Below the pieces are notes generated by a model. It saw nothing but the letters and a program-made list of their open reading frames with translations. It was not told where the DNA came from and searched no databases. Shown piece by piece: positions 3,023 to 22,783 of a stretch of DNA of 32,000 nucleotides. The first letter of the stretch is position 1. Each line of letters begins with the position of its first letter. The translations under genes and the position numbers were made by a program. This DNA is from Sinorhizobium meliloti (lineage in GTDB: Bacteria; Pseudomonadota; Alphaproteobacteria; Rhizobiales; Rhizobiaceae), in contig NZ_JAGIOS010000003.1 of the NCBI RefSeq assembly GCF_017876815.1, positions 1,470,001 to 1,502,000 on the forward strand. The letters run 5' to 3'.

Positions 3023-3961
3023 TCAGAACCGGACGCGCGGATCAATGACGGCGGTGAGCAGATCCACTATCAGCGTGATCAGGACGGTCGAGACCGCGAA
3101 GATCAGCGTCAAGCCCTGCACGACATAGTAGTCGCGCCCGAGCAGCGCGTTGACCATCAGCGTGCCGAGGCCGGGCACCGCATAGACGGTTTCGACGATG
3201 ACGGCGCCGCCGATCATAAAGGCCACCATGACGCCGAGCAGGTTGAGTGTCGGCAGCAGGGCGTTCGGCAACATGGTCTGCCAGAATATCTGCCGCTCTG
3301 TGGCGCCCTGCGCCCGCGCGGCGGTGACGAAGTCGGCGGCCGTTTTTTCGATAAGGGCGGCGCGCAGGCTCTGAGTCAGAACCGGCACCAGCCAGATGGC
3401 CGTTGACAGGGCCGGCAAAAAGAGGTGATGAATATGGCCTGTGAAACCGGTGCCGTAGCCCGAGACCGGGAACCAGCCGAGGCTGACGCCCAAGAAGCGC
3501 GACATCATGATGCCCAGCCAGAATACCGGGATGGTGAGGCCGGCAATCCCCAAAAGGCGAATGATCTGGTCTGCGATGCCGCCGGGACGGCGGGCGCCGA
3601 GGATGGCGAGCACGACCGTCGGCGGGATGGCGAGGCATAGGACATAGCCGGTCAGGAACAGCGTCGGCCACATGAACTGTTCAATAAGCTGGCTCACCGG
3701 TCGCTGAAAGCGCAGCGACAGGCCGATATCGCCCAAAGCGAGATTGGCGAGATAGGTCAGGAACTGCCGCCAGAGCGGCAGGTCGAGCCCATATTGCGAG
3801 CGGATCGCCGCGATGGTTTCAGCATTCGCCCTCTCCCCGGCAAGAAGCCGCGCGGGATCGCCGGGGGCCATGTGCACTAGAAGGAACGTCACGAGGCTGA
3901 TACCGGCAAGCACACCGATCAATTGCAGCAGGCGCCGCGAAATGAGTTGCAGAAGGGGCAA
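3023..3961 (-). CDS. ABC transporter permease (DppB/OppB-like)
   Basis: 312 aa with a typical DppB N-terminus (RRLLQLIGVLAGISLVTFLLVHMAPGDPARLLAG) and C-terminal DPRVRF. TTG start at 3961, preceded by GGAGAG. Confidence 0.9.
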   Translation of the reverse strand: MPLLQLISRRLLQLIGVLAGISLVTFLLVHMAPGDPARLLAGERANAETIAAIRSQYGLDLPLWRQFLTYLANLALGDIGLSLRFQRPVSQLIEQFMWPTLFLTGYVLCLAIPPTVVLAILGARRPGGIADQIIRLLGIAGLTIPVFWLGIMMSRFLGVSLGWFPVSGYGTGFTGHIHHLFLPALSTAIWLVPVLTQSLRAALIEKTAADFVTAARAQGATERQIFWQTMLPNALLPTLNLLGVMVAFMIGGAVIVETVYAVPGLGTLMVNALLGRDYYVVQGLTLIFAVSTVLITLIVDLLTAVIDPRVRF

Positions 3962-4000
3962 TCCGGCTCTCCGGTTCGAGCGTCAGGGGGTGGAGGTGGC

Positions 4001-8651: not shown

Positions 8652-8668
8652 GGCGTCCTGCAGAATCT

Positions 8669-10108: not shown

Positions 10109-10413
10109 GATTGGCCCTCCTTCTCTTCGAGTGTTGCGCATGATCGCGCTTCCTGTCTTCTTCTCTTCTTCGACATACCCTGCCCCTGATGTGCACACTT
10201 CCGGAGATTTTCACTGCCGTTTGGGCATAGGGAGATGGGGCCAAGACTGTCGAGATAGGCGGATGCGCCGCCTTTCTCGTAGGTCGAGGAGGCGACGTTG
10301 CGGTCGCAGAAGGACTTCAGCACCTGGCGCACCCGGAAATGGGGAGGAAGCATGGATCGACTCGCTAGCGCAAATCGGTACGCGCAGATGTGATTTGGTG
10401 CGTGAAAACCCAT
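10105..10413 (-). CDS. small hypothetical protein (102 aa, or 82 aa from ATG 10353), translationally coupled to the ATP-grasp gene
   Basis: It fills the 322-nt gap between the decarboxylase stop and the ATP-grasp start. Third-codon-position GC is very high across FRVRQVLKSFCDRNVASSTYEKGGASAYLDSLGPISLCPNG. Its TGA overlaps the ATP-grasp ATG (ATGA). I recognise no family. Confidence 0.5.
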   Translation of the reverse strand: MGFHAPNHICAYRFALASRSMLPPHFRVRQVLKSFCDRNVASSTYEKGGASAYLDSLGPISLCPNGSENLRKCAHQGQGMSKKRRRQEARSCATLEEKEGQS

Positions 10414-10430
10414 TGTTTGAGGGAGCACAC

Positions 10431-13211
10431 TCAAGACGCGCCTCCATGCCCGGGAGACGGCTTTTGTGCGTCCAGAACTCTGGTAAGCGCTTTCTCCGTG
10501 AAAACCCGAAAACCCTGTTCCGGCCGGAAGCCGTGTATTTCGCGAACATCGAGCGCGCGCAGATATTGCAGTATCGCGGGACTTATGACCTGGCCCGGCA
10601 CGAGAATGGGCGAGCCCGGTGGGTAAGGGGTAACGAGACGCGCAGAGACCAGTTCGCGGCCCCGTGCGATGGCGCCTTCGGCTTCGATGAGGTTGAGATA
10701 CTCGCACTTTGCATTGTCATAGGACAGGTAATAGGCCGAGCGTATGTCGCCATCTCGGCTTCCCATGTTAGTAAAAGAGTCCGTCGCGCGGAACGCCGAA
10801 TGGAAGGCTGAAAAGGTTGGCAGCGGCGGCTGTTTCTGCGTCAGCGAGAGAAACTGTTGATCGTGGATGCTGCGCTCGATCATGGAGAGATCGCGCACTT
10901 TATCGTCGATGTCGCGCGCGATCTTCACCAGCACCCCGATGAGATGGGCTAGGTCGGAGCGTGTGCAGCCGATATTCACTATGAACAACACCGTGTTGGG
11001 CGAGGTCTTGTTGATCTGGATCTTGTGTTCATCCATCAGCTTGTTCTTGAATGGGTCGCCACTGAGGCCTGTCGCGCCGATTTCCAGCGTTACGCGTGTC
11101 GGATCGAGCGCGAATTCGTCCGTCCGCCAGGCCGCCTCAAAATTGCTCCAGCCGGTCTTCTCGTCGAAACAGGATTCCGCGTTCGACTGGCGATATTTCG
11201 GCGGCACGAGATCGTCGCCGCCGAGGACTCGGAAATACTTCGTCAGCAGCGGATGGCGGAACATCTGCTCGCGCAGGCTCATGGCGAGTTCCAGCGTGCG
11301 CTGCACGAGTTTATAGCCTTCCATTTCCACCTGCCGGCGGCCGACGTCGAGCGACGCAAGGATCTGGTAGTTTGGTGAGGTCGAGGTGTGCGTCATATAG
11401 GCCTCGTGGAAGGCCTCCTCGGTCTTTTCCTTGAACTCCTGATCCCAGATGTGAATCATTGACCCCTGCCGCAGTGCCGTCAGCGTCTTGTGCGTCGACT
11501 GGGTTGCATAGACCCGCACCCGCGCCTTCGACGGATCTGGAAGGAGTTGCGTGTTCAGGATCCTTTCGTCGTCCTTCCAGGCCCCGGCGTCGAATTCGGC
11601 GCTGAAGGCCTCGTAGCGGGTGGCGTAGTCAGGAGCCTGCAGCATCGCGGTAAGATTGGCGGCAGCTTTCATAGCCGTGCGCTGCCGGAGTATCGGATGC
11701 GCGTAAGCGAAGGCGAACCAGGCCTCGTCCCACACGAAGACGAGATGCGGCGCGATCGCCAGGCACTCCATCATCACGCGCTCTACGTTATAGACGATGC
11801 CATCGAAGGTGCAGTTGGTGAGCAGCAGCAGACGAACACGGTCGAGCGTGCCGGCGTGCTTGTAGGCGAGAAGGGTCCGCTTCAGGTCCCGCAAGGGCAC
11901 TCCGCCATATATGGAATAATCGTTCCGCGGATAGGGATCCAGATAGTCGACCCGCGCCCCCGCCAGCACCAGCCCGTAATGGTGTGATTTGTGGCAGTTG
12001 CGGTCGGCCAGCACCACGTCGCCTGGCCTGACAAGCGCCTGCAACACGACCTTGTTGGCGGTCGAAGTCCCGTTGGTGACAAAGAAGCTGCGCTTGGCGC
12101 CAAAGGCGCGCGCGGCATATACCTGCGCAAGCTTCAATGGGCCGGTCGGATCGAGCAGGGAATCCAGGCCGCCTGAGGTAGCGGAGGTCTCCGCCATGAA
12201 CAGGTTGATGCCATAGAACCGCGCAAGATCGTCGATCCAACTCGAATTCACGATCGACTTGCCGCGGGAGACCGGCAAGGCATGGAAGACGCTTACCGGC
12301 TGTTTGGCGTGGTTGCGCACGGCATCGAAGAAGGGCGTCTGGTAGCGCAGCGCGACGCCGCGTGTGATGGAGTAATATAGTTCGTCTTGGTGCTCATCGC
12401 GGAAGAAGACGCGCCGGAACGTTTCGCCCATGCGCGCAGCGATGTCCTCGACATTGCCGTCAGTGACGAGATAGAGGTCGAGCTCTGGCCGAAGCTGCGC
12501 AATCTGGCGGCCGAGCAGCGGGCCGCGCTCGGATTCCGGAACGGCATCGATGCCGGCGACTAGCCCGTCGAGGACCCGACGCCACGTGGCCAGATGATGG
12601 TCCTGCGAGCGGGAGGGAAAACCGTAACGGACAACCACGGCCTGGAGGTCGAAGTTGACGAGCGTCGCGATCAGAGCGTCCTCGAAGGTCGGCACGATGA
12701 CTATGTCAAAGACGAAGTCGTCATCGATGCAGCGTTTGCGCTGTACGCGCCGGCGTAGAGCCTCCTGCTCGGAGCCCGACATCTGGCCAACTATCAGCAC
12801 CTCGAAATAGTGGCGAGCCTGCCGCTGTTCGTCAGTTTCGATCTGGGAGGGCAGGTCGCCTTCGGTCTCCGATAACACGCTTTGGCGGCGATAGGTCTGC
12901 CTGGCGAGCATCTTGTGAATCCGCCGCGCGGCGAGATGGGCCTGGACCAGTTCCCGTCGTTCGACCAACCCTTTCAGTTCGGCGAAGGAACGTGCACCGG
13001 GAAAAGCCCAGTAGGTCTCTATGGGGGACAGAGTCTTGATAGCGTGGGTCACCCGCTCAAGGGTTGTAATGAAATCGGAATGGTCCGGGGAAATAGTCGA
13101 GAGCAGCCCCAGATCGTCCACCAATAATGTCCAACTGTCAGAGCGAAGCTCCGCGATGCTGCGGCAGCTATGTAGCGATATTTCGACGGTATCCGTGGTG
13201 GCGATAGTCAT
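10431..13211 (-). CDS. large Orn/Lys/Arg decarboxylase-family PLP enzyme (926 aa)
   Basis: Fold-type-I major domain with PLP lysine motif ATQSTHKTL, plus TSATSGGLDSLLDP and VTNGTSTANK blocks. A wing-like N-terminal domain is preceded by an extra segment of about 140 aa. The start at ATG 13211 forms ATGA with the nifH-derived leader ORF. The track ORF to 13442 reads through the promoter cassette and is not credible. Confidence 0.85.
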   Translation of the reverse strand: MTIATTDTVEISLHSCRSIAELRSDSWTLLVDDLGLLSTISPDHSDFITTLERVTHAIKTLSPIETYWAFPGARSFAELKGLVERRELVQAHLAARRIHKMLARQTYRRQSVLSETEGDLPSQIETDEQRQARHYFEVLIVGQMSGSEQEALRRRVQRKRCIDDDFVFDIVIVPTFEDALIATLVNFDLQAVVVRYGFPSRSQDHHLATWRRVLDGLVAGIDAVPESERGPLLGRQIAQLRPELDLYLVTDGNVEDIAARMGETFRRVFFRDEHQDELYYSITRGVALRYQTPFFDAVRNHAKQPVSVFHALPVSRGKSIVNSSWIDDLARFYGINLFMAETSATSGGLDSLLDPTGPLKLAQVYAARAFGAKRSFFVTNGTSTANKVVLQALVRPGDVVLADRNCHKSHHYGLVLAGARVDYLDPYPRNDYSIYGGVPLRDLKRTLLAYKHAGTLDRVRLLLLTNCTFDGIVYNVERVMMECLAIAPHLVFVWDEAWFAFAYAHPILRQRTAMKAAANLTAMLQAPDYATRYEAFSAEFDAGAWKDDERILNTQLLPDPSKARVRVYATQSTHKTLTALRQGSMIHIWDQEFKEKTEEAFHEAYMTHTSTSPNYQILASLDVGRRQVEMEGYKLVQRTLELAMSLREQMFRHPLLTKYFRVLGGDDLVPPKYRQSNAESCFDEKTGWSNFEAAWRTDEFALDPTRVTLEIGATGLSGDPFKNKLMDEHKIQINKTSPNTVLFIVNIGCTRSDLAHLIGVLVKIARDIDDKVRDLSMIERSIHDQQFLSLTQKQPPLPTFSAFHSAFRATDSFTNMGSRDGDIRSAYYLSYDNAKCEYLNLIEAEGAIARGRELVSARLVTPYPPGSPILVPGQVISPAILQYLRALDVREIHGFRPEQGFRVFTEKALTRVLDAQKPSPGHGGAS

Positions 13212-13354
13212 GGTCTTCCAAGCTCCCGTCGGTGGCTGAGTGCGAGATGATGCCGCGACATCGGACGCGGCTGGTTCCCTCGAAGCAATGGACACGGCAC
13301 CCGCTTGGGCTTGTGTTTCTTGCAGTGGAACGCGATCTGACGCAGAGCTGCCAT
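13208..13354 (-). CDS. nifH-derived leader ORF (48 aa): 9 nifH codons followed by unrelated sequence
   Basis: AAGGAAG SD, then ATG 13354: MAALRQIAFHCKKHKPKRVPCPLLRGNQPRPMSRHHLALSHRRELGRP*. The stop TGA (13210-13208) overlaps the decarboxylase ATG (13211-13209). Confidence 0.5.
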   Translation of the reverse strand: MAALRQIAFHCKKHKPKRVPCPLLRGNQPRPMSRHHLALSHRRELGRP

Positions 13355-13403
13355 CTTGCTTCCTTTGTTGTTTAATTATTTGGGTTGTTCGGAGGGTTGA
13401 TCG

Positions 13404-13419
13404 TGCAAAAGTCATGCCA
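13404..13419 (-). promoter_or_regulatory. sigma54 (RpoN) -24/-12 promoter, copy A
   Basis: Minus strand TGGCATGACTTTTGCA, matching TGGCAC-N5-TTGCA with correct GG/GC spacing. Confidence 0.75.
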
Positions 13420-13507
13420 GGCCGCAGGAGTGACTGAAGCAATGCTAATTGCTTTCTTTCAGATGGTTAGATCGGGAAATTGACGACACGGTCGAAGGAA
13501 CAATCGG

Positions 13508-13523
13508 TGTCGCAAAGCCGACA
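13508..13523 (-). promoter_or_regulatory. NifA upstream activator sequence, copy A
   Basis: TGTCGCAAAGCCGACA fits TGT-N10-ACA and lies about 90 nt upstream of the -24/-12 element. Confidence 0.7.
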
Positions 13524-13607
13524 AAGGTGACGAACAATGTCGTATGGGTGGTCGTCACGCGTCCGAGCATGTGGAGGCGTGGGCGCTCTTCCGAAACTTT
13601 GTTTAGC

Positions 13608-13859
13608 TCACCGAGCGTGGTGCCGTCCTCTAAGTGCTGACGGCATCGGTCGGAACGCACAAGCCCGTCGCCGCATGCGCGACATGACGTTGATGCGGCT
13701 CTGGAAGAGCACTTCGTTATCCGACGGGAAGCCAAGGCTCTCGTCTTCGACGGTGGACTCAGTTATGGTCTTCACTGGAGTCTGTACGGCGCAGGAGGAT
13801 TTGTGGAGGCCGTGGTGCTCCACGGAGCGGGGTCCATACCTGAATGCCAAGTGCGTCAT
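13608..13859 (-). CDS. small hypothetical protein (83 aa), paralogue of the body of the 20362-20664 ORF; 3' end probably decayed
   Basis: AGGGAA SD before ATG 13859 and high GC3. The core VEDESLGFPSDNEVLFQSRINVMSRMR matches IEDRSLGSPSKNEMHFHSRMKVMASMR in the copy-C ORF (16/27 identical). The tail runs into the cassette A upstream region. Confidence 0.45.
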   Translation of the reverse strand: MTHLAFRYGPRSVEHHGLHKSSCAVQTPVKTITESTVEDESLGFPSDNEVLFQSRINVMSRMRRRACAFRPMPSALRGRHHAR

Positions 13860-13887
13860 CGATTCCCTGCTATGAGAGTTTTTGGAT

Positions 13888-14109
13888 CTACAAGATGTTG
13901 CCGTCCGGTGAACCTTGGCGAACAGCGAACGTCGTCGGCTCATCGTCCGCGACACCAGCATCGTAGACGAGGCGTTCCCGTACCGAATTGTCTCGGTTAA
14001 ATGTCAGCACCCGCGATTTGATCTCCGCGATCTGATTTTGCTCAATATAAGCGGAGGAGCAAATGATGACCTCATCTCCAACCTGGCAGGTGCGCGCAGC
14101 GGCCCCCTC
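13888..14109 (-). pseudogene. aspartate 1-decarboxylase (PanD)-like C-terminal fragment fused out of frame to nifH codons
   Basis: Translation: EGAAARTCQVGDEVIICSSAYIEQNQIAEIKSRVLTFNRDN... This resembles the PanD C-terminal region (NGAAA...GD.VII.S.....E.......V.F...N). There is no N-terminal pyruvoyl-forming part and no start codon of its own. Confidence 0.5.
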
Positions 14110-14246
14110 GTAGACTTGCCGATACCCCCTTACCGTAGAACGCGATCTGACGCAGAGCTGCCATCTTGCTTCCTTTGTTGTTTAAACTAATTCGTTTGTT
14201 CGGGACAATTGAATGCGCACAGCATGCGCGCGCCACTGGGTGATCT

Positions 14247-14262
14247 TGCAAAAGTCGTGCCA
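14247..14262 (-). promoter_or_regulatory. sigma54 -24/-12 promoter, copy B
   Basis: Minus strand TGGCACGACTTTTGCA. Confidence 0.75.
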
Positions 14263-14348
14263 GGCCGCAGGAGTTACTAGAGTAATGCTAATGGCTTTCT
14301 TTCACATGGTTAGATCGGGAAGTTGGCCGCATGGTTGAAGGAAATCTG

Positions 14349-14364
14349 TGTCGGGGAGCCGACA
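14349..14364 (-). promoter_or_regulatory. NifA UAS, copy B
   Basis: TGTCGGGGAGCCGACA fits TGT-N10-ACA. Confidence 0.7.
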
Positions 14365-14936
14365 AGGGCGGCGGACAATGTCGTATGCTGTGCAGTCATC
14401 CGTTTCGACACCGGGGCTTCTTCGCCTACAGGATCGAGGTGATGGGGCGGAGAAATGCCGCGACATGAGTCAGGCGCAAATGCTGGAGGCTTTTTCGTCC
14501 GGGACGGTCGGGGTCTTTGCGTCCTACAGTGCAGCGCTCGGCCAGATTGAAAGCAGGTGGCGGGCAAATTTGCACTCAAGGCAGCGCCTTGGCCGATCAT
14601 GTCTAAAGGTGGACGTGTTCCGGCAGGCGGTCGCGTGATCATGATTTATTCGAAGGATCCAAGCAAACAGAAGGCCGAAAACGCAAAACCTGCTCGCCAC
14701 ATCCTACGAGCTGAATCCAAATCAGCGAGCCGCGCTCGACTCCGTTACGCCTGACGAAATGGCTTTCGTATCCCGGTGACAATGGATCAATCAAGGTCAG
14801 CGAGGTCATTCGTGATCAGCTTCGGCGCATTCTTATCGGCCATGAGGAGCCGGCAGCTGTTCTGGCCAACAAAAGGCTGCCGTGCAGCCGCACGTTGCCG
14901 CAAACCAACCCCTCGTCCAAATAAAATCGGAACATA

Positions 14937-14971
14937 GAAGAGGCCCTGCAGGGGGCCTCTTGCGTTTTATT
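14937..14971 (+). terminator. Rho-independent terminator-like hairpin
   Basis: GAAGAGGCCC-TGCAG-GGGCCTCTT followed by GCGTTTTATT. The upstream plus-strand coding sequence is fragmentary (frames broken), so the gene it terminates is unclear. Confidence 0.55.
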
Positions 14972-15301
14972 GTGTAGATTGTCCCGGTCGTCGATCATGT
15001 CCCAGGGAGTTCTCTAATCGCGGTTGTCAAGTTGATCGCAGAGGGTGTCACAGGTCAGGCTCATGGTTCTCTTCGAGGTCGGCACTTGGGCCGCCTCATC
15101 ATGGCGTTGGATAGGCTCAGTCGACCAATGTGGTGTTCGCGGTTACCTGCATGAGCCGGCATTCGCATTCCTGGGATCGGTCTTGACTGCGCCATCGTCC
15201 TGACCGGACGATCTCGCTAATCTCAGCTAATCATGGACATCATTGTAATCATGCCAGCCCGCTCGGCTCTTGCGATGACCAACGGAAGGGTTCGCCGGAT
15301 A

Positions 15302-15770
15302 TCACATGGCGTGGAGGATGACGGCGAGCTTTCGGGCTACCGCCACCTTAGCCTTTCGATAGCCGCCTCGCCGCGCGATGCGCAGCCTCCAGCTCTTTAA
15401 AGCGGAGAACCGTGGAATACGAGTCAGCAGCGAATTGGCTGCCTCATACAGGCTGCCTCGAAGAAAGTCGGCGCCCCGTTTCGAGACGCGCCCGGATCTC
15501 ATCGTCTCACCGGAGGCATAGATGCGAGGTGTCAGGCCAAGGTAAGCTCCGGTGCTGGACGATCGTTTGAATCGTGTCGGATCATCAATGGTCGCGGTGA
15601 AGCCGAGCGCAGTGATGGCGCAGACACCAGGGACCGACATTAGGCGTCTTACGACAGCGTTCTGCCGCGCTATCGAGCGAACCTTCGCATCGAGGAGACC
15701 CACTCGGAAGCGGGAGCTGGTGAGGGGCATGTGCCGAGATTGGATGATCTCGATCCGCGTAGTTGCGGTC
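15302..15770 (-). pseudogene. IS110-family transposase, C-terminal half only
   Basis: RRLMSVPGVCAITALGFTATIDDPTRFKRSSSTGAYLGLTPRIYASGETMRSGRVSKRGADFLRGSLYEAANSLL...KAKVAVARKLAVILHAM is the Transposase_20 domain. The N-terminal DEDD domain is absent. Confidence 0.8.
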
Positions 15771-15873
15771 CACTCGACTTTGATCCACCGACCTCTTCTT
15801 GCACTTCCGCGCCACAGCTATCGAGGTGATCCGTGACGCAAACGCTGCCACGGGTGTGCCGCCACGTTGGCTA

Positions 15874-16299
15874 CCGAAAACGGTTAATGTCGATCAGGGT
15901 ACGGAATTTGCGCCCCCGATCGCAACCTTTAGGCCTATGGACACGGGCGTGATCCTGGACTGCCACGGGTAAGCCTACGGACAGTGCCTACATCGAAGCA
16001 TTCAACAGCCGGTTCAGAGCCGAGCGCCTGAACCAGTACTGGTTCCTGCCCCCTGCGAACGCTCGCGAAAAGATGGAGCATTGACACAGAGATCACAATG
16101 AGTTTCGGACACATGGTGGATCGGCAACAAAGCGCCGATCGCACCCTCCGGGAAGCGCCGCCAGTCCGCTTCCCTGAGAAGGCCGCCCAGTCCCTTGAGC
16201 CGTCTAAACAAGCGCAACGACAAGCGCTGCTGTTGGGGTGCAAGGCCGTTTGATTGCTACTCTTCCCGATTTCCTGAGATTTCCGAGGCGCGGACCTCA
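15874..16299 (+). pseudogene. IS3-family (IS407-like) OrfB C-terminal remnant with frameshifts; possible right terminal repeat ending at 16299
   Basis: Pieces in shifting frames: LPKTVNVDQGTEF..., GKPTDSAYIEAFNSRFRAERLNQYWFLPPANAREKME, GNKAPIA. The sequence ...TTCCTGAGATTTCCGAGGCGCGGACCTCA ends in the TG/CA-type terminus expected for IS3 ends (inference). Confidence 0.65.
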
Positions 16300-16319
16300 G
16301 CCGATGAATGCCGCCAATC

Positions 16320-17306
16320 TCAGCCGTATACGCCGATTATTTCTATTTCACGCATCTCGGCCGGCGTGACGAGCGGCTCGGCCAGGAATTTCTCGGCTTC
16401 CAGCGCCGCCATGCTTCCCATGCCGGCGGCGCTGATCGCCCGACGGAAGACCGGGTCGATTACATCACCGGCCGCGAGTATCCCCGGAACGGATGTCTTC
16501 GTCGACCAGGAGCCAACCTTGATGTAGCCGGCCCGGTCCATGTCCAACTGACCGCGAAACAAGGCGGTTGCTGGATCATGACCTATGAAGAGGCCGTGCG
16601 TGGGCAGTTCCTTCGCGTCGCCGGTATTCACGTCACGAATTCGAACGCCGGTCACCGACTTCCGCGGCTCGCGCTCGCCGATAACTTCATCGATGACGTG
16701 GTTCCAAATGACGTCAACATTCGGTCTGGCCAAAAGGCGGTCCTGCAAGATCGGCTCCGCTCGAAAACGATTTCGGCGATGGACGACTGTGACCTTGGAG
16801 GCAAGGTTCGACAGATAGAGCGCTTCCTCCACGGCTGTGTTCCCGCCGCCGACAACGACCACTTCCTTGTTTCGATAGAAAAAGCCATCAGAGGTTGCGC
16901 AGGCGGAGACGCCGAATCCAGCAAATATCTTCTCTGAGGGAAGGCCAAGCCATCGGGGCTGGGCTCCCGTCGCGATGATGAGTGCGTCGGCGAGATACGT
17001 GTCGCCGGAGTGAGCTTGGAGACGGAATGGCCGCTTCCAGAGATCGACAGAGGTGATGATGTCGTACATCAACTTGGTGCCGACATTTTCTGCCTGCTGC
17101 CGCATCTGCTCCATCAGCAAGGGACCTTTGACCGGCTCAGCGAAACCTGGGAAGTTCTCGACATAAGCCATGGTGGTGAGCTGGCCGCCGGCCTGCCGGC
17201 CGGTTACGAGGAGTGGCTTCAGGTTGGCAAGGGCAGCGCAGATGGCAGCGGTATAGCCCGCCGGTCCGGCCCCGATGATCAGGACCCTGGCGTGGTGGGT
17301 GTTCAT
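16320..17306 (-). CDS. thioredoxin-reductase-like flavoprotein with CxxS (CATS) in place of the CATC redox centre
   Basis: 328 aa from ATG 17306 (AGGAGGAG SD). Motifs: FAD site GAGPAGYTAA, NADPH sites GGGNTAVEEALYL and VHRRNRFRA, and AAGDV. The active-site region reads VSACATSDGFFY, with a TCT codon where TrxB has TGT/TGC. The track ORF to 17540 is an extension. Confidence 0.85.
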   Translation of the reverse strand: MNTHHARVLIIGAGPAGYTAAICAALANLKPLLVTGRQAGGQLTTMAYVENFPGFAEPVKGPLLMEQMRQQAENVGTKLMYDIITSVDLWKRPFRLQAHSGDTYLADALIIATGAQPRWLGLPSEKIFAGFGVSACATSDGFFYRNKEVVVVGGGNTAVEEALYLSNLASKVTVVHRRNRFRAEPILQDRLLARPNVDVIWNHVIDEVIGEREPRKSVTGVRIRDVNTGDAKELPTHGLFIGHDPATALFRGQLDMDRAGYIKVGSWSTKTSVPGILAAGDVIDPVFRRAISAAGMGSMAALEAEKFLAEPLVTPAEMREIEIIGVYG

Positions 17307-17632
17307 GATGTGATCTCCTCCTACGTAACGGTCCGGTGGGTCGGCCGTGACGCGGCCTCGGGGTAGTTGGTGTAGCAAAGGCAGCTCCTTGCGCATTGTG
17401 AAGCACTCAGCAGATCGAAAGGGCTTGGGGCTTGGGGTTTGGGTTCTGCGTTGGGGCTGAGACAGCGGTTCTGAACCAATCTGGTGAGAGCAATCGTGTC
17501 GGCCGGGTTTCGCTGTGTGGTGACACAATGATGCTGCCAAGGGTGATATCGGACAGTGCCGCTGGTCAGCTTTGGAAATTGCAGTCTAATGCCGCATTGG
17601 CGCGCCCGCTTAGGCGCAACTTCAGTGGGACA

Positions 17633-18403
17633 TCAGCACTGGCGCCCGAAGGGCGTACCGAGACGGCCTTGGGCCTCCCGATCGACGAGCAGCGTCACCG
17701 TGCGATCGGGACTGCGGAACAACCTCGCACGACTGATGTTGAGGACGGTCTCAGAGGTGGTCGCTATTTGAACGGGACGGTGAGCGGCCTCGATGACCTC
17801 GACATCCAAGATCGAGTGGTCGCACAAGACAATGGGAGACCAGGCGGGAGGGCACCCGATGGCCTTGCCTGTGACGGCCATGAGCGAAGATCCGAGCGGG
17901 AGGAGCGGCCCCCCGAGCGTACGATTATAGCCGGTGCTGCCGATTGGCGTCGTCAACACGAGACCATCCCCGTTGATGTTCATCGGGTCCCCATTTCCGC
18001 GGACGGCAACGCTTAACTTGGCTTGCTGGAATACCTGCCGCTCAAGGACGATCTCGTTGATAGCGAAAAGCTCTCGGCTGCGCCCTCCCACCTGCTCGAT
18101 CTCGGCTTGCAGCACAGGCAGTTCCTCGCTGGAAGCCGCTTGCAATCGCTCCGTCAAATCATGCGTCCGTAGTGAATTGCAGAGAATTCCGGTGGAGCTG
18201 TCGGTACGCATGGCGAATACGGGCTTTGCCGGCATTGCCGGCATTGCCAGTGCCTCATGAAGCGCCTCCAATGCGGTACCGTCTCCACCGATGGCCACGA
18301 TGAATTCGGCTTCTGCCGCCGGGGTCTGGCCGTAGCGCCCCGAAAGTTCCTTGAGTGCCCCCTGAGCGCGTGGTCTCGGTGATGCCCGGAATGCGATCTT
18401 CAT
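17633..18403 (-). CDS. nadK: NAD(+) kinase
   Basis: Motifs GGDGT (IVAIGGDGTAL), NEIVLER and GDGLVLTTPIGSTGYN. 256 aa. Confidence 0.85.
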   Translation of the reverse strand: MKIAFRASPRPRAQGALKELSGRYGQTPAAEAEFIVAIGGDGTALEALHEALAMPAMPAKPVFAMRTDSSTGILCNSLRTHDLTERLQAASSEELPVLQAEIEQVGGRSRELFAINEIVLERQVFQQAKLSVAVRGNGDPMNINGDGLVLTTPIGSTGYNRTLGGPLLPLGSSLMAVTGKAIGCPPAWSPIVLCDHSILDVEVIEAAHRPVQIATTSETVLNISRARLFRSPDRTVTLLVDREAQGRLGTPFGRQC

Positions 18404-18600
18404 GGTTGAGCCTTTAATTCAAGAAGGCTGACTTCCCCATTCAAAGGGGGGTTGAGCAAAGCTGGCTGGGCGCTAAGATCTCGCAACAAGCCGCGCTTAG
18501 ACGCGACCATCCGTTGCCGCTGCTTCCCAATACGGATGAAAATATCAGCGCGAACTAAACACGCTTTTTTCAGCCACCTGATCATGCCGTTCTCACTCAT
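18400..18600 (-). CDS. small hypothetical protein (66 aa), translationally coupled to nadK
   Basis: ATG 18600 is preceded by GAGGGAGG. Its TGA overlaps the nadK ATG (ATGA at 18400-18403). GC3 is only moderate and I recognise no family. Confidence 0.4.
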   Translation of the reverse strand: MSENGMIRWLKKACLVRADIFIRIGKQRQRMVASKRGLLRDLSAQPALLNPPLNGEVSLLELKAQP

Positions 18601-18660
18601 GATTGCCTCCCTCTTTGTGGCCGTTGTAGGCGGCCACGCCATCAGCACCGTTTCGGGGCC

Positions 18661-19923
18661 TCAGCCCATGAGGAAATGCTGCGTGCCTTGCGCTTCAATG
18701 GCCTCCGCAAGCCGAGAGAGCGCGTGCACATAAGCGGCGCTGCGCAGGGTAATGCCTTTCTCCTGGGCGAGCGTCCAGACCGCGTCTCCTTCCTGCTCCA
18801 TCCTTGTCTTCAGCCGCGCATGCACCTGCTCGATCGGCCAGGAATCGCCTTGCCGGTTCTGCACCCATTCGAAATACGAAACGGTGACACCACCCGCATT
18901 TGCCAAGATGTCAGGGAGCACAACGACGTTCTTGGCGTTGAGGATTTTATCAGCTTCAAGGGTTATCGGCGCGTTGGCGAGTTCGAGGATGACGTGAGCC
19001 TTTACGCGTGCGGCATTTCCTGCGTGAACCATGTCCTCCAGGGCGGCCAAAACGAGCAGCTCGCAATTGACAGAAACAAGCTCGTCGGCAGGAAGCGTGC
19101 AGACGCCGTCTGAGCCTGCAAGGCTGGTGACGCTCCCCTGCCGCTTTGCGGAAATGAGCTTATCGACGTCGAGTCCCGAGGAGCACTGGACCCCCCCCTT
19201 CGAGTCCGTGACCGCCACGATCTTGAATCCGGCGGCTCCAAGCAGCTGCGCAATGTGCTTGCCCGCATTGCCGAAGCCCTGAATCGCCACCCTCGCGCCA
19301 GGCCGCAATCCGAGCTTTTGCGCCTGGTGTAGGAGGAGATAGTAGCCGCCGCGGGCCGTCGCGTCCTCCCGTCCGAGCGAGCCGCCGAGGGCGATGGGCT
19401 TGCCGGTGATCACCGCCGGGGTCACCTCGCCAACGATAGCGGCGTATTCGTCGGCCATCCAGGCCATAATCGTCGAATTGGTATAGACGTCCGGCGCCGG
19501 AATGTCCCGGTTCGGACCGATGACCTTGGCGAAACATTGAACATACCGGCGGGCGAGGCGCTCCTGTTCGGTCGCGGACAGATTGTGAATATCCACCTGC
19601 ACGCCGCCCTTGGCACCGCCAAGCGGCAACTTGATAACCGCGCACTTCATGGTCATCAGGAAGGCGAGCGTCTCGACCTCGTCGATAGTCACATCCGGGT
19701 GGAAGCGAATGCCGCCCTTGGTGGGGCCGAGCGTGTCGTCATAGCGGCAGCGCCAAGCGGGGTAGGACTTGCTCGCGCCGTCGTCCATGCGGATGACTAG
19801 ACGGGCTTGCGTGGTCTCGCGCGGCGATTTGAGTTTCTCGAGAACGTCCGCGGTGATGTTGAGGTACCCGGCTGCTTCGTAGAGACGTGCCCGGGCTTGG
19901 TCTAGCATAGTCTTGGGGACCAT
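18661..19923 (-). CDS. Glu/Leu/Phe/Val dehydrogenase family enzyme (glutamate dehydrogenase-like, 420 aa)
   Basis: Catalytic Lys motif KLPLGGAKGG, PTKGGIRFHP, dinucleotide fold VAIQGFGNAGKH, and C-terminal VSYFEWVQN. Confidence 0.9.
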   Translation of the reverse strand: MVPKTMLDQARARLYEAAGYLNITADVLEKLKSPRETTQARLVIRMDDGASKSYPAWRCRYDDTLGPTKGGIRFHPDVTIDEVETLAFLMTMKCAVIKLPLGGAKGGVQVDIHNLSATEQERLARRYVQCFAKVIGPNRDIPAPDVYTNSTIMAWMADEYAAIVGEVTPAVITGKPIALGGSLGREDATARGGYYLLLHQAQKLGLRPGARVAIQGFGNAGKHIAQLLGAAGFKIVAVTDSKGGVQCSSGLDVDKLISAKRQGSVTSLAGSDGVCTLPADELVSVNCELLVLAALEDMVHAGNAARVKAHVILELANAPITLEADKILNAKNVVVLPDILANAGGVTVSYFEWVQNRQGDSWPIEQVHARLKTRMEQEGDAVWTLAQEKGITLRSAAYVHALSRLAEAIEAQGTQHFLMG

Positions 19924-20258
19924 TTGATTCCGTTCCTTGTGTTCGTTGCAGCTATCGCGGGTCTGGGCGACATGAGCGGCGGTTGGCAGCTGCCGCCCGC
20001 AAGAGTCGTTTTAAAAATTTCGTCGATTTGGCGGTCGAGCCTCAGAGGCATGTTCTGGTTATCCTTCAGGGACTTGCATGAGAGTTGGAAGACGTAGTCA
20101 TTGTTTTCCCCCATGTCTGGCTGCGCTATCGTAGTTGTTAGCTGCTCGCGACGAGGCTGAGTCACTCGCGCCGCTGACGATGTCGGTTTCGACGACGGCG
20201 AGCGTTTTTGCTGACTATGTCCCAGTTTGTGGAACTCCATCTGAAGCAAACCTGACAT
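19902..20258 (-). CDS. hypothetical protein (118 aa from ATG 20258; the track gives 149 aa from 20351)
   Basis: GAAGGAGAG SD lies 6 nt before ATG 20258. Local GC is lower and GC3 only moderate. The 3' end overlaps the dehydrogenase start by 22 nt. No recognisable motif. Confidence 0.35.
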   Translation of the reverse strand: MSGLLQMEFHKLGHSQQKRSPSSKPTSSAARVTQPRREQLTTTIAQPDMGENNDYVFQLSCKSLKDNQNMPLRLDRQIDEIFKTTLAGGSCQPPLMSPRPAIAATNTRNGIKWSPRLC

Positions 20259-20361
20259 CTCGTTCTCTCCTTCATTCATCGGATCGCGGGCGGCGTTAGG
20301 TGTTTCCGATTTTGCTGCCAAGTCAGGCGGCGAGCTAAAGACAGACGCCAAGGTTTTCTTT

Positions 20362-20664
20362 TCAGTTGCTTGCTTTAGGGTTTCCGCTTGGACTTACCAC
20401 CACGGCCCTTGCCGAAATCGGTCTTGGCGTAATCGGCTTTGCCGAAACCGCCCTTGCCTTCCTTGAAGCTGCGGGCGGAACGCGGAAGCCGTCGCCGCCG
20501 CGCATGCTCGCCATGACCTTCATGCGGCTGTGGAAGTGCATCTCGTTTTTTGACGGGGAGCCGAGGCTGCGATCTTCGATGGGCGCGGTTACCGGCTGAG
20601 CCTTTCGCTTGGGCTTGCCGGTACCACCCTTGCCGTAGAACGCGATCTGACGCAGAGCTGCCAT
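20362..20664 (-). CDS. chimeric ORF: NifH residues 1-17 fused in frame to a small basic protein (100 aa as read; probable frameshift near 20465-20481)
   Basis: MAALRQIAFYGKGGTGK, then PKRKAQPVTAPIEDRSLGSPSKNEMHFHSRMKVMASMRGGDGFR. GC3 is near 100% in this frame up to about 20480, then high GC3 switches to another frame that reads SFKEGKGGFGKADYAKTDFGKGRGGKSKRKP* (stop at 20375). Confidence 0.6.
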   Translation of the reverse strand: MAALRQIAFYGKGGTGKPKRKAQPVTAPIEDRSLGSPSKNEMHFHSRMKVMASMRGGDGFRVPPAASRKARAVSAKPITPRPISARAVVVSPSGNPKASN

Positions 20665-20747
20665 CTTGCTTCCTTTGTTGTTTAAACTATTTCGGTTGTT
20701 CGGACACATGAATGCGCAACAGCATACGCGCCCAGCAGGGCTGATCG

Positions 20748-20763
20748 TGCAAAAGTCGTGCCA
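20748..20763 (-). promoter_or_regulatory. sigma54 -24/-12 promoter, copy C
   Basis: Minus strand TGGCACGACTTTTGCA. Confidence 0.75.
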
Positions 20764-20851
20764 GGACGAAGGACTGGCTGGAACGAAGCTAGTTGCTTTC
20801 TCTCAGACAGTTAGATCGGGAAATTGACGACACGGTTGAAGGAACAACCTG

Positions 20852-20867
20852 TGTCGAGGAGCCGACA
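20852..20867 (-). promoter_or_regulatory. NifA UAS, copy C
   Basis: TGTCGAGGAGCCGACA fits TGT-N10-ACA. Confidence 0.7.
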
Positions 20868-21291
20868 AAGGTGATGGACAATGTCGGATGGCTGCGGCAG
20901 TCATCCGCTCGGCGCCGGGGCTTCTTCGCTTAGGGCGCTGAAATGATGGAGCGGAGAATGCGGCCCTTGCAACGGCGCTCACTTTGAAGAGAGCAGAGCA
21001 TGTCAACTCGCCCGGCGGCTGACTGCGGGCCTCGCGGCGAGGGCGCGATGAAGGCCCCTCAAGGCGTGGGGGTTGATAGCGGTCGGCACGCCCTGGTGCA
21101 TGATCGTGTTCGTCACCGGATGGATGCTATTTGCGCAGCATCCGGCGCCTGCTTGATACAGACTACGAGGTGCATGGTATGTCTCCCAGCTGCAATCATA
21201 TGTGGCTAAGGTTTCCGTCTCTTCCAGCATCAACCGAGCCAACCACTGACGTGACCCACAAACCATTGATTTGATCGACGTATTTCCTTCT

Positions 21292-21680
21292 TTAGAGATT
21301 CCGGCGTGTTATAGTTTTGTCGTATTGCGTACAGGATCGTGTTCTTCTAACTGGCACTGCAAGGCGTAAGCGGTGAAGGCCCATCCTGACGATGTGAACC
21401 ACTAACTTCTTTACCGGAACTGTTGGAGACCTGGCCAACTTCAAGAGCGATGCGGCAATTGGTCGTGCTTTCGTTTCGCACGCCTTCTGAAGGCCGCTAC
21501 GCAGCTTGTTGACGACGGGCCTTGCAAGACTTCGCCTTCGGCTGCTCAGCGATAAGGAGCGACTTTGCCCGGCAGACGGCCGACAACGTCCGCTTCTTCC
21601 ATTTGGCCCACCGTCTCTGATTGATGTCATAGCGCTCTGAAAGCGCCCTCACGCCGGCCTCACTATTTTGCATTGCTCGG
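21292..21680 (-). pseudogene. IS481/IS3-superfamily (rve-type) transposase N-terminal remnant, multiply frameshifted
   Basis: EAGVRALSERYDINQRRWAKWKKR resembles the HTH region (..YGINPKTVAKWKKR..). Downstream pieces (LSAEEE.., ..AYALQ..) appear in other frames. Confidence 0.4.
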
Positions 21681-22019
21681 CGACTGCCTGCAGCAGCGTT
21701 CAATCGATGCGGGGTTTGGTCCCGGTAGACCGAAATGCTGACAGAGCTTGGCAGCGATCGCATAGAACGCCTCCCTAGGGCTCGTAATGCTCGCGATCTC
21801 ATGGGTCGCACCTATCCGGGAACATTCGCGGACAAGCGCATCGAGACTGCCGGTATCCACACTGACGGCCTCGATGTTTTCCGTTGCAAGATAGTCATAC
21901 TGAGCTGGATCAGCTGACAGGACAATTGGATGCAATCCAAGACTCTTGGCCGCTTGGACGTAGAGCTGACCAAGACCTCTTATACCGCCTTCAACTAGGA
22001 TGAGCACTTTCGTTGCCAT
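21663..22019 (-). pseudogene. ATP-grasp enzyme, N-terminal (pre-ATP-grasp) fragment truncated by the IS remnant
   Basis: MATKVLILVEGGIRGLGQLYVQAAKSLGLHPIVLSADPAQYDYLATENIEAVSVDTGSLDALVRECSRIGATHEIASITSPREAFYAIAAKLCQHFGLPGPNPASIERCC. This is a typical start of CPSase-L/ATP-grasp ligases, but the ORF ends after 118 aa. Confidence 0.55.
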
Positions 22020-22092
22020 TTGCTGTTAACCTCGATATTGTTTGTTTCACTGCGGTCCGAGAGCGGAGATCGGGATCAGCTGCGTTAGCCGC

Positions 22093-22375
22093 CCCCAGCT
22101 CGACAAGCGCGGCGAGTGTATTTTGGCAGGCCGTAGACTTGCCGATACCTCCTTACGTAGAACGCGATCTGACGCTGAGCTGCCATCTTGCTTCCTTTGT
22201 TGCTTAAACTAGTTCGGTTGTTCGGACACATGAAAGCGCGACAGATGCACGCCAAGGGGCGATCGTGCAAACGTCGTGCCGGACCGCAGGAGTGACCAAA
22301 ATAAAGCTTATAGCCTTCTTTCAAATCGTTAGATCTGGAAATTGACCATATGGTTGAACGAACAACTTGTTCGTT
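22093..22375 (-). repeat. nifH promoter / 5'-coding cassette, copy D (UAS lost; nifH codons 1 to about 32, frameshifted)
   Basis: ATG 22186 gives MAAQRQIAFY. After a 1-nt deletion a second frame reads GIGKSTACQNTLAALVELG (NifH has GIGKSTTSQNTLAALV.LG). Homology to the other copies stops at the position of the UAS. Confidence 0.8.
22266..22281 (-). promoter_or_regulatory. sigma54 -24/-12 element, copy D (degenerate: CGGCAC)
   Basis: Minus strand CGGCACGACGTTTGCA. GG/GC spacing is kept, but there is no TGT-N10-ACA upstream. Confidence 0.5.
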
Positions 22376-22783
22376 CCGTTCCACGGCACATTGCCTGCCG
22401 ATCAGCAGAAGATGCTGCTGAGCCCGTGCCATGCCGGTTAAGGTGAGCGCGAGAAGCTCCCGCGAACGCTCCTGGGCGCCCGAAGACGGCCAGTGTTGTT
22501 TCCGTGATGGCTTCGGCGAAAAAAGAATGGTTGGATCCCGCTTCGAAACCGAACATTCGCCTGGGAGGTGAAAGGATACGACCTGTCGGCGTCCATCTGA
22601 AAGGAGGCGGTAGACACGCACGGCTCCGGTCGAAACCTGATAGCACTTGTAGTTCAGATCACCGTGGGCATAGATCTCGCACCCCGGCTTGTAGGTGGCG
22701 ACAAGATGGGGCCGAGGAATTGCGGCTGGTCCAAGGTGTTCGGCCTCGATGGACTGTGGTTTGGCTTGTGCAGCGGCGTACAT
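22375..22783 (-). pseudogene. Crp/Fnr-family FixK/FnrN-like regulator gene, frameshifted and 3'-truncated
   Basis: Frame a: CYQVSTGAVRVYRLLSDGRRQVVSFHLPGE. Frame b: MFGFEAGSNHSFFAEAITETTLAVFGRP. Frame a again: RELLALTLTGMARAQQHLLLIGRQCAVER. The sequence then joins cassette D, and the C-terminal HTH is missing. Confidence 0.7.

Follow-up and report, generated by a model that had tools for sequence, protein, structure and literature searches.

Copies of the nifH promoter ahead of accessory genes have long been known as a means of nodule-specific control. Better et al. in 1983 are said to have described upstream homology shared by the S. meliloti symbiotic promoters P1 (nifHDK) and P2 (fixABCX). 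Reiterated nifH-promoter sequences (RtRS) were reportedly found by Watson and Schofield in 1985 on sym plasmids of R. leguminosarum bv. trifolii, and the reiterated nifH genes of R. etli, attributed to Quinto et al. in 1985, are said to be full or nearly full and to lie within nif operons.

At the rhizopine (mos) locus of S. meliloti L5-30, a mos ORF1/nifH-promoter duplication has been described (Murphy et al. 1993, J Bacteriol 175:5193, cited in PMC6668481; Swiss-Prot Q07602), and rhizopine synthesis is under NifA control (PMC6668481). In the symbiosis island of M. loti R7A, a NifA-regulated promoter lies upstream of a nifQ fragment preceding msi332 (PMC3538637).

We have analysed 32,000 nucleotides of S. 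meliloti DNA (the window), which are 100% identical to plasmid pSmeSM11c (pSymA) of strain SM11 and carry four cassettes, A to D, made of the nifH promoter and the first nifH codons, ~750 kb away from the nif region. They are further members of an already described kind, since the ORF of cassette C carries the mos ORF1 name in the SM11 GenBank annotation, and constitute a real but largely ordinary example. As in L5-30, cassette C joins nifH promoter, leader and N-terminal codons to an ORF1-specific segment. Unlike in L5-30, no mosA, mosB or mosC was found downstream of the cassettes in the window; C is followed by GDH, NAD kinase and TrxB genes and A by decarboxylase, ATP-grasp and C45 genes, and A keeps only 9 clean nifH codons and appears to use a coupled leader ORF. 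With P1 and P2 the copies share a ~160-nt UAS-to-(-12) module, to which they add the nifH leader and coding start. They are dispersed nif promoter copies on a sym plasmid as RtRS are, but of a different species' sequence. Like the msi332 case, they recruit a nif promoter plus a 5' gene fragment for unrelated genes, though that system concerns another nif gene, another genus and a single copy. As in R. etli, several nifH 5' regions on one sym plasmid are recombination substrates, but here they are promoter-plus-few-codon cassettes instead of full nifH genes.

Anatomy and ancestry of the four copies

BLAST places the segments at 13319-13566 (A), 14108-14465 (B), 20610-20958 (C) and 22093-22375 (D), all on the minus strand and essentially where the preliminary description had put four nifH promoter/5'-coding segments. 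Their features are as follows.

Cassette A, 13319..13566, minus strand: UAS TGTCGGCTTTGCGACA (13523-13508), -24/-12 element TGGCATGACTTTTGCA (13419-13404), leader minus 36 nt, ATG 13354
Cassette B, 14108..14470, minus strand: UAS TGTCGGCTCCCCGACA (14364-14349), -24/-12 element TGGCACGACTTTTGCA (14262-14247), ATG 14164, ~19 nifH codons with a 1-nt deletion
Cassette C, 20614..20965, minus strand: UAS TGTCGGCTCCTCGACA (20867-20852), -24/-12 element TGGCACGACTTTTGCA (20763-20748), full leader, SD AAGGAAG, ATG 20664, 17 nifH codons
Cassette D, 22093..22375, minus strand: -24/-12 element CGGCACGACGTTTGCA (22281-22266), no UAS, nifH leader, ATG 22186, ~32 nifH codons with indels

The copies match one another with pairwise BLAST E-values of 1e-32 to 1e-87. 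The 27-mer ATGGCAGCTCTGCGTCAGATCGCGTTC occurs four times (once, in D, with one mismatch) against 0 expected from shuffles, and TGGCAC-N5-TTGCA with at most one mismatch occurs exactly four times against 0.69 expected, a number that 1 of 100 shuffles reached. A TGGCAC element had been claimed for A too; a sigma-54 -24/-12 element is indeed present in each, with the GG and GC dinucleotides intact and canonically spaced, but A reads TGGCAT (and D CGGCAC). The UAS, TGT-N10-ACA, was found in A, B and C and was absent from D, as previously noted, and its distance to the -24 element is 102-104 nt, compared with 103 nt at the genuine nifH. It also holds that the window contains no full nifH, and that the copies show a gradient of decay, with D lacking the UAS and A having a shortened leader; the missing part of that leader is real and measures 36 nt.

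We have taken the nifH region of the same replicon (SM11 pSmeSM11c 1021729-1031017, locus L020, nifH ATG at 3735) as the reference. A failure of these segments to align with the organism's own nifH upstream region had been named as a refuting outcome; actually, all four align with it, and homology to the GR4 nifH region (L019) was found as well. Identity to SM11 nifH is 90–99% in the leader (99% for C) and, over the first 27 coding nucleotides, 100% in A-C and 96% in D. It is 72–85% for the UAS-to-(-24) part, and cassette D matches the genuine GR4 nifH region at 88% identity. The upstream half of A-C is 80–85% identical to fixA P2 versus 73–77% to nifH P1, a modest gap by which this UAS-to-promoter half appears somewhat closer to P2. 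The genuine nifH promoter is itself preceded, at a distance of 934 nt, by a P3-like promoter copy. The ancestry and anatomy of the four cassettes are plain from these alignments and motif positions.

A 371-nt cassette query gave 15 BLAST places on the SM11 plasmid, against 3-4 in strain GR4 and in S. medicae WSM419; across 201 plasmid records there were 645 places. So many dispersed copies could suggest a discrete MITE- or IS-like mobile element with an outward-facing promoter. We regard this as very improbable, for both boundaries vary between copies (relative to the ATG, ~-210, -300, -660 and -190 upstream and +27 to +96 downstream), a search for repeats turned up no inverted termini at the cassettes, and each rhizobial lineage uses its own nifH sequence. 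The copies are thus not classed as an IS or a MITE.

Genes and relics around the cassettes

The features on the side of cassettes A and B are as follows.

13208..13354, minus strand: 48-codon nifH' leader ORF, read from the sequence and the ORF translation
7641..13211, minus strand: operon behind A (Pfam and NCBIfam matches), composed of the next three genes
10431-13211, minus strand: 926-aa Orn/Lys/Arg-family PLP decarboxylase
8669-10198, minus strand: ATP-grasp 'biotin carboxylase'-like ligase
7641-8699, minus strand: C45 acyltransferase/hydrolase
499..5548, minus strand: Dpp/Opp-type ABC transporter (SBP, two permeases, ATPase; Pfam matches)
13567..14107, minus strand: relic spacer between B and A, with a PanD-like 3' half (~14095-13890) and a mos-ORF1-like remnant (13753-13647)

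In A, the nifH' frame is a separate ORF and not a decarboxylase fusion. Past codon 9 it shows remnants of a C-type junction (AAGCCCAAGCG). Its stop codon, TGA, shares bases with the decarboxylase ATG (ATGA at 13211-13208), an arrangement that points to translational coupling of the two. Terminator-like hairpins lie at the operon end (7632-7568) and an IS insertion at 5887-6963. The ABC transporter was probably the distal part of the same operon before that insertion; sym plasmids of R. leguminosarum have decarboxylase, ATP-grasp and C45 genes in this order too, and there the ABC transporter comes directly after the C45 gene. In the spacer, the PanD-like relic gives a weak Asp_decarbox match (E 8e-4, below cutoff) and the mos-ORF1-like remnant is 77% identical to the C ORF region. 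Overall, 14106-13325 of the window aligns to L029 7243-8030 (81.6% over 828 nt), from mid-panD to the next cassette.

The features on the side of cassettes C and D are as follows.

20362..20664, minus strand: 100-aa nifH'::mos-ORF1-type ORF, 83% identity at 70% coverage to Q07602
16320..19923, minus strand: operon behind C (Pfam and NCBIfam matches), composed of the next four genes
18661-19923, minus strand: Glu/Leu/Phe/Val dehydrogenase (GDH)
18400-18648, minus strand: 82-aa ORF
17633-18403, minus strand: NAD kinase
16320-17303, minus strand: thioredoxin-disulfide reductase (TrxB)
20966..21323, minus strand: fixA-promoter-upstream-type DNA, continuous with cassette C, containing a fixA 5' coding fragment (21218-21067)
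21663..22019, minus strand: truncated ATP-grasp gene (N-terminal 118 aa only), downstream of D
22400..22783, minus strand: Crp/FNR-family pseudogene fragment (partial cNMP_binding, E 9.6e-8), its frame broken across two ORFs

The ORF of C carries its nifH N-terminal codons in frame with the ORF1 segment (GKPKRK...IEDRSLGSPSKNEMHFH.RMKVMA.MR). Q07602 is the 'Uncharacterized protein in mosA 5' region', i.e., mos ORF1 of the rhizopine locus, and SM11 AEH81391.1, the C ORF, is annotated 'Hypothetical 11.0 kDa protein in mosA 5'region', so the analogy to mos drawn earlier is literal for C. Elsewhere, the ORF1 segment is represented by KPKR-type remnants in A and by the remnant between B and A, and D has none. 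A mos-like relic on another part of the SM11 plasmid comprises ORF1, an aldehyde-dehydrogenase fragment, a DHDPS/MosA-like gene and DegT fragments. A terminator-like hairpin (16230-16214) lies beyond the C operon. Two intact operons had been proposed; the A operon is intact, but the C operon has lost, at ~20180, the asd and amino-acid-kinase genes that related strains (L002 and L029) possess.

The region 20966-21323 is 75% identical over 586 nt to the GR4 fixA upstream DNA and 85.7% identical to the fixA 5' end. The truncated ATP-grasp gene (ATPgrasp_N, E 1.5e-5, just under the Pfam cutoff) has a full homologue behind a cassette in RCAM1750. The Crp/FNR-family fragment, which we take to be FixK-like, directly adjoins the truncated upstream end of D.

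Conservation and predicted use of the copies

When 13 non-nifH copies of 5 strains are compared, conservation is highest at the UAS (0.91), in a mid-spacer block at -160 to -131 (0.87–0.95), at -24/-12 (0.94–0.98) and from the SD to +30 (0.92–0.98), versus 0.35–0.85 elsewhere. This pattern is what would be expected of functional promoter and translation-start elements rather than of neutral debris. An IHF site between UAS and promoter occurs in many nif promoters, though not in every one. In the 87–95% conserved block, the positionally conserved TTTCAGAT(N)GTTA matches 7-8 of 9 IHF consensus positions, a score not above background since 27% of random windows reach at least 7; the earlier doubt about an IHF site was thus justified. 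Compared with shuffled sequence, the leader RNA has less structure (z +0.8 to +1.5).

The invariance from the SD to +27 could also result from gene conversion with nifH instead of selection. More broadly, the copies might be kept mainly as recombination or gene-conversion substrates for deletions, amplifications and operon swaps, their identity being due to conversion with nifH and not to selection for expression. The nifH reiterations of R. etli are known to mediate amplification and deletion, and here there are four direct repeats on one strand, nested layers of cassette and mos-ORF1 remnants, two complementary partial copies of the asd-to-trxB operon in SM11, and junctions at many different nifH codons. 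On the other hand, conversion should homogenise whole cassettes, while the upstream parts are 15–28% diverged and the 45-50 nt around the ATG are invariant. As the main explanation we find it unlikely, and it is compatible with the one that we prefer.

The comparison with other strains bears on a further alternative. In R. leguminosarum Vaf10, the orthologous decarboxylase operon stands behind a second, inverted copy of the resident nifH promoter with its leader and ATGGCAGCTCT (92–93% identity); OyaliB has the same arrangement, with an in-frame MAAL fusion in both (bv. viciae plasmids). In bv. trifolii 3B and WSM1689 it follows a TGGCACGACGCTTGAA promoter, with the UAS intact in 3B and degenerate in WSM1689, and on bv. 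trifolii plasmids NifA/sigma-54 promoters also precede orthologous GDH operons. In S. meliloti ml66 it lies behind a decayed S. meliloti cassette. Judged from these junctions, which differ, the R. leguminosarum operon is wired independently to a NifA/sigma-54 promoter. We read this as repeated capture via lineage-specific junctions, in bv. viciae via a copy of the resident nifH promoter.

It could be argued that all four copies are inert recombination debris, with the downstream operons using other promoters or staying silent: the region is crowded with fragments (fixK', fixA', panD', ATP-grasp') and with IS and Tn3 elements, small indels have shifted the frames of B and D, which are left with peptides of just 30 and 33 aa, and the C operon is incomplete. 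This seems improbable to us, given the motif-specific conservation at UAS, -24/-12 and SD-ATG, the preserved UAS phasing, the intact decarboxylase, ATP-grasp, C45, GDH, NAD kinase and TrxB ORFs, and the independent joining of the same operon in R. leguminosarum. In addition, a sigma-70 scan gave no minus-strand site in 7000-23000, and thus none upstream of the A or C operon.

We prefer, with a probability of roughly 0.78, the explanation that the segments originated through recombination as copies of promoter, leader and translation start of S. meliloti nifH (P1), that they belong to the mos ORF1 family and that they are driven by NifA and sigma-54 in bacteroids. Cassettes would have recombined with one another, both homologously and illegitimately, and transposition would have played no part. 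For SM11, NifA/RpoN dependence, start sites, translational coupling and bacteroid specificity are predicted from sequence. In bacteroids, NifA would bind TGT-N10-ACA ~103 nt upstream of the -24 element and activate sigma-54 (RpoN) RNA polymerase at GG-N10-GC. The transcript would bear the leader of nifH, A-rich and unstructured, followed by the AAGGAAG SD and at least the first 9 nifH codons as a strong translation start. At A, ribosomes would translate the leader ORF and re-initiate at ATGA on the decarboxylase/ATP-grasp/C45 operon, while at C the 100-aa peptide would be made ahead of GDH, NAD kinase and TrxB. In alfalfa nodules, GFP is expressed from a consensus built on the 368 bp in front of Sinorhizobium nifH, in which these motifs occur (PsnifH-Sino::GFP; bioRxiv 10.1101/2025.03.04.641427).

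B and D, both relics with shifted frames, may serve as tandem promoters upstream. Since B has a perfect promoter, no intact gene and no predicted minus-strand terminator-like site before A, it is probably a second, tandem promoter for the A operon, in parallel with the P3-like copy near the genuine nifH; terminator predictions overall are no commoner than in shuffles, which makes the proposed operon ends, and likewise read-through from B, tentative. D, without a UAS and with a truncated gene downstream, should be mostly a relic. Some points do tell against the preferred explanation: A has a C to T change at -24 in addition to its leader loss, the C operon is a deletion derivative, and no intact gene follows B or D.

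A possible bacteroid-specific metabolic module

The cassettes may mark a conserved, horizontally shared, bacteroid-specific metabolic module, composed of PanD, Asd, an aspartokinase-like kinase, GDH, NAD kinase and TrxB plus the Orn/Lys/Arg decarboxylase, the ATP-grasp ligase, the C45 acyltransferase and the Dpp-type ABC importer. Its product, which might also be taken up again, could be a new opine-like compound derived from aspartate or lysine, or a new polyamine conjugate. Each lineage would have re-wired the module to its own NifA/sigma-54 promoter (its own nifH copy where checkable), because nifH promoters are not interchangeable between genera, and in Sinorhizobium the invariant nifH SD to +27 would be an obligatory translational or post-transcriptional part. 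This is a tentative reading, possible rather than probable. The repeated capture of the decarboxylase operon forms part of a testable model, promoter replacement after horizontal transfer.

Overall, accessory genes would enter the NifA regulon by recombining with the nifH promoter and translation start that are already resident, and not by the evolution of new promoters. In genome annotation, a short 'MAALRQIAF...' ORF should be labelled a promoter cassette rather than a nifH pseudogene. The downstream genes point to a candidate pathway that nodule metabolomics could take up, as could work on competitiveness or cheating. Since SM11, a dominant field isolate, has ~5x as many cassettes as strains such as GR4, its nodule-specific accessory metabolism may far exceed that of GR4-like strains.

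The four cassettes and their ancestry

Megablast places positions 12000-23500 of the window, at 100% identity, on 267168-278668 of the S. meliloti SM11 plasmid pSmeSM11c (NC_017327.1), so the window corresponds to 255169-287168 of this 1.63-Mb pSymA-type megaplasmid. The sole other full match is the nearly identical RU11/001 plasmid. Genes in the window were annotated in this analysis; the PLSDB annotation for SM11 is empty. By direct reading of the minus strand, we have seen in all four segments the architecture given in the preliminary description, i.e., a sigma-54 element (-24/-12, TGGCAC-N5-TTGCA), the SD sequence AAGGAAG and the first nifH codons, preceded in A, B and C by the NifA site TGT-N10-ACA (UAS):

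13319-13566, minus strand: cassette A
14108-14465, minus strand: cassette B
20610-20958, minus strand: cassette C
22093-22375, minus strand: cassette D

Repeat finding resolves the cassettes into two direct-repeat families of four members each, which can be aligned with MAFFT. The 27-mer ATGGCAGCTCTGCGTCAGATCGCGTTC occurs four times in the window (ATG at 13354, 14164, 20664 and 22186), with a chance expectation of none, and TGGCAC-N5-TTGCA with at most one mismatch is found in the window only at the four cassettes (expected 0.69). The -24 motif TGGCAC had been ascribed to A as well, which actually reads TGGCAT. The UAS lies 102-104 nt from the -24 element in A, B and C (103 nt in genuine nifH), and TGT-N10-ACA was sought in D and not found. 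The account of the nifH-derived parts as short 5' stretches of the gene needs refinement, since B and D are frameshifted and code for 30- and 33-aa peptides, and the frame of A forms a separate 48-codon ORF.

An approximate NifH protein query had an R. etli-type nifH as its best match; a GR4 DNA query led to the SM11 nifHDK region (1024229-1028517), which was taken as the resident reference (L020). As had been proposed, A-D all align to the promoter, leader and 5' coding region of this same-genome nifH. In the UAS-to-(-24) segment, identity between the cassettes and the nifH/fixA promoters is 72-85%, and A-C are somewhat nearer to the fixABCX promoter P2 (80-85%) than to the nifHDK promoter P1 (73-77%), whereas D is nearer to P1. 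The cassette leaders are 90-99% identical to the nifH leader and unrelated to that of fixA, and coding nucleotides 1-27 of nifH are matched at 100% in A-C and 96% in D. Upstream of C, homology continues for 586 nt into fixA-upstream-type DNA including a fixA 5' fragment; the upstream end of D abuts a Crp/FNR (FixK-like) pseudogene. At the level of sequence, these alignments establish the ancestry of the cassettes in nifH/fixA promoters, the intactness of core motifs and phasing in A-C, and the anatomy of the junctions.

The canonical nif region is also a mosaic. Nine codons of nifH with their promoter are present as a "P3-like" copy 934 nt upstream of the genuine nifH promoter; behind this copy comes an rpoN relic with an internal deletion, a Sigma54_AID N-terminus and a Sigma54_DBD C-terminus (2414-2996 of the GR4 nif region, with an equivalent in that of SM11). 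The order P3-like copy, rpoN relic, nifH promoter is present in all listed S. meliloti and S. medicae records with full query coverage, including strain 1021, and suggests that a NifA-driven rpoN copy was formerly present between the two promoters.

In BLAST, the 371-nt C cassette query finds 645 places on 201 plasmid records. pSmeSM11c and the RU11/001 plasmid have 15 each, many other pSymA plasmids (S. meliloti, S. kummerowiae, S. medicae) have 7-14, and GR4 and S. medicae WSM419 have no more than 3-4. Of the 15 SM11 copies, we have located 11-12: the window holds four and the nif region three, and the further SM11 loci L026 and L027 account for three and a half and one, respectively. An exact-pattern scan of species-representative genomes gave matches in R. 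leguminosarum-group genomes, S. medicae and Ensifer sp., and no match in the S. meliloti representative.

Genes joined to the cassettes

The downstream ORFs of A and C are intact, and the coding parts of B and D are relics. In A, the TGA of the 48-codon nifH' ORF overlaps the ATG (ATGA, 13211-13208) of a 926-aa Orn/Lys/Arg-family decarboxylase, to which this leader ORF may be translationally coupled. Next in line are the genes for an ATP-grasp "biotin-carboxylase-like" ligase and for a C45 acyltransferase. A DDE transposase (IS; 5887-6963, plus strand) then separates the C45 gene from a Dpp-type ABC transporter; since the two are contiguous in R. leguminosarum, insertion of the IS has probably interrupted the A operon in its distal part.

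Cassette B adjoins the 3' half of a panD-like gene (about 14095-13890), and window positions 14106-13325 run collinear with the related-strain locus L029 (81.6% over 828 nt), starting in the middle of panD and reaching the following cassette. This collinearity indicates that A is the cassette of the L029 asd operon, joined by recombination near nifH +27 to the decarboxylase leader. Because a terminator scan found no terminator-like site between B and A, B may act as an upstream tandem promoter. The sole gene remnant downstream of D is a 118-aa ATP-grasp fragment, and read-through transcription may arise from both B and D. In L029, an accessory panD (aspartate 1-decarboxylase, 7030-7461) stands just upstream of the cassette-headed asd operon of that S. 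meliloti strain; PanD is absent from most rhizobia (PMC10228743). Two other elements lie near the cassettes:

15302-15730, minus strand: IS110/IS116-family transposase fragment (Transposase_20), between the C operon end and B
23677-28851: transposon of the Tn3 family between 40-nt inverted repeats (90% complementary); it encodes a Tn3 transposase of 1031 aa, a resolvase and, as passenger, a 453-aa ORF without Pfam match

For C, the suggested analogy with the rhizopine mos genes turns out to be literal. Its 100-aa ORF (MAALRQIAFYGKGGTGKPKRK...IEDRSLGSPSKNEMHFHSRMKVMASMR...) has a homologue in Swiss-Prot Q07602, "Uncharacterized protein in mosA 5' region", i.e., ORF1 of the L5-30 rhizopine locus, and its GenBank title in SM11 is "Hypothetical 11.0 kDa protein in mosA 5'region" (AEH81391.1). 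Based on this homology and this name, the C-type unit is of an already described and annotated kind, and the nifH'::ORF1 unit is found again before different operons in other strains. Downstream of ORF1 come remnants and then intact genes for GDH, NAD kinase (NADK) and thioredoxin reductase (TrxB). In related strains (L029, L002) the order is PanD, cassette/ORF1, Asd, amino-acid kinase, GDH, NADK, TrxB; the asd and kinase genes have been deleted from the SM11 C operon. A second cassette-headed locus (L026, pSmeSM11c 1127930-1144262) has them intact, with truncated GDH and TrxB genes. Since this content is reciprocal to that of the window, the two partial asd-to-trxB copies are complementary.

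An 82-aa ORF between the GDH and NADK genes (18400-18648, minus strand) has no family match, and its stop overlaps the NADK start; its L029 counterpart has 80 aa at the same position. L026 also carries a divergent cassette in front of ATP-grasp and radical-SAM genes. The locus L027 (485460-501768 of the SM11 re-assembly) is a mos-like relic, with a 102-aa mos ORF1, an aldehyde-dehydrogenase tail fragment, a DHDPS (MosA-like) gene, split DegT aminotransferase fragments and a DUF1611 gene. In bacteroids of R. leguminosarum UPM791, a "putative glutamate dehydrogenase" encoded on the sym plasmid has been detected (PMC7950203); it is a possible orthologue of the GDH of C.

The decarboxylase operon in other rhizobia

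Sym plasmids of R. leguminosarum also carry the decarboxylase/ATP-grasp/C45/ABC-transporter operon, with 82-88% nucleotide identity. In bv. viciae-type plasmids (Vaf10, OyaliB), the operon stands back-to-back with nifHDK. In front of it, the promoter, leader and first four codons of that strain's nifH recur as an inverted duplicate (arms 92-93% identical in Vaf10), and MAAL is fused in frame to an N-terminally shortened decarboxylase. In bv. trifolii (3B, WSM1689), a TGGCACGACGCTTGAA promoter lies just upstream of the leader GCGAGGGAACCAGC-N-GCGTCCGATGTCGCGG, the same leader as 3' of SM11 cassette A; 3B has an intact UAS, WSM1689 a degenerate one. In bv. trifolii the operon is divergent from a GDH gene, and in 3B this gene is preceded by a UAS and a sigma-54 promoter of its own. 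On an accessory plasmid of S. meliloti ml66, the decarboxylase gene follows a decayed S. meliloti cassette. Taken together, these arrangements indicate that one operon has come under a NifA/sigma-54 promoter via at least three distinct junctions. In bv. viciae, sequence comparison identifies this promoter as a duplicate of the resident nifH promoter; that of bv. trifolii is of NifA/sigma-54 type by motif, with a possible nifH ancestry.

Immediately upstream of the duplicated promoter in Vaf10 (2663-2778 of locus L022), the 12-nt unit CTTTGTCGCTAC is repeated seven times in tandem, so that the array forms an expanded UAS half-site. In addition, sigma-54 nifH promoters head 47-49-aa nifH' ORFs in R. 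leguminosarum, R. laguerreae and R. ruizarguesonis, with nifH' broken at codon 20 (codon 31 in L009). In the M. loti symbiosis island, an analogous promoter carries a nifQ fragment, not nifH (PMC3538637).

Promoters of nifH' ORFs, by locus and position
L003: 5517, without UAS
L007: 5247 and 6671 (inverted pair, 1.4 kb apart), with UAS
L009: 1978, with UAS
L012: 540, with UAS

Conservation, origin and expected function

We have profiled identity to nifH across 13 non-nifH copies from five strains. It peaks at the UAS (0.91), at -160 to -131 from the ATG (0.87-0.95), at -24/-12 (0.94-0.98) and from the SD to +30 (0.92-0.98), and is 0.35-0.85 outside these peaks. Read from the alignment, such a profile is that of elements under constraint for protein binding and translation initiation. 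The -160 to -131 peak is the GTTAGATCGGGAAATTGACG block, for which the preliminary description had doubted an IHF match. The block does overlap a near-IHF motif of conserved position; its 7-8 of 9 matches are not above background, in keeping with that doubt.

An RNA structure or riboswitch in the leader and first codons is unsupported: the Rfam search of the whole window found no family, the leaders, folded singly, are less stable than their shuffled versions (z +0.8 to +1.5), and the alignment fold has no covariation because its columns are invariant. The weakly structured leader would suit a region kept open for efficient ribosome loading better than a structured RNA element. In alfalfa nodules, GFP is expressed from a consensus of the 368 bp that precede nifH in Sinorhizobium, in which these motifs are present, and a Rhizobium version of the nifH promoter is inactive in S. 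meliloti (preprint 10.1101/2025.03.04.641427).

As to origin, the boundaries vary from cassette to cassette, for which reason a mobile-element model was rejected, and a repeat search of the window found no terminal repeats at the cassettes. Because of both features, we infer that the cassettes arose by recombination and not by transposition. NifA would bind at the cassettes and sigma-54 initiation would follow, in a bacteroid-specific manner.

Nif promoter cassettes in reiterated form, and the mos mosaic, date back in the literature to the 1980s-1990s. Cassettes A-D belong to this known kind, and the SM11 annotation already indicates mos ORF1. What is added, of specialist interest, is that one operon has been recaptured in a lineage-specific way, that the partial operon copies complement each other, and that conservation from the SD to +30 is sharply localised.
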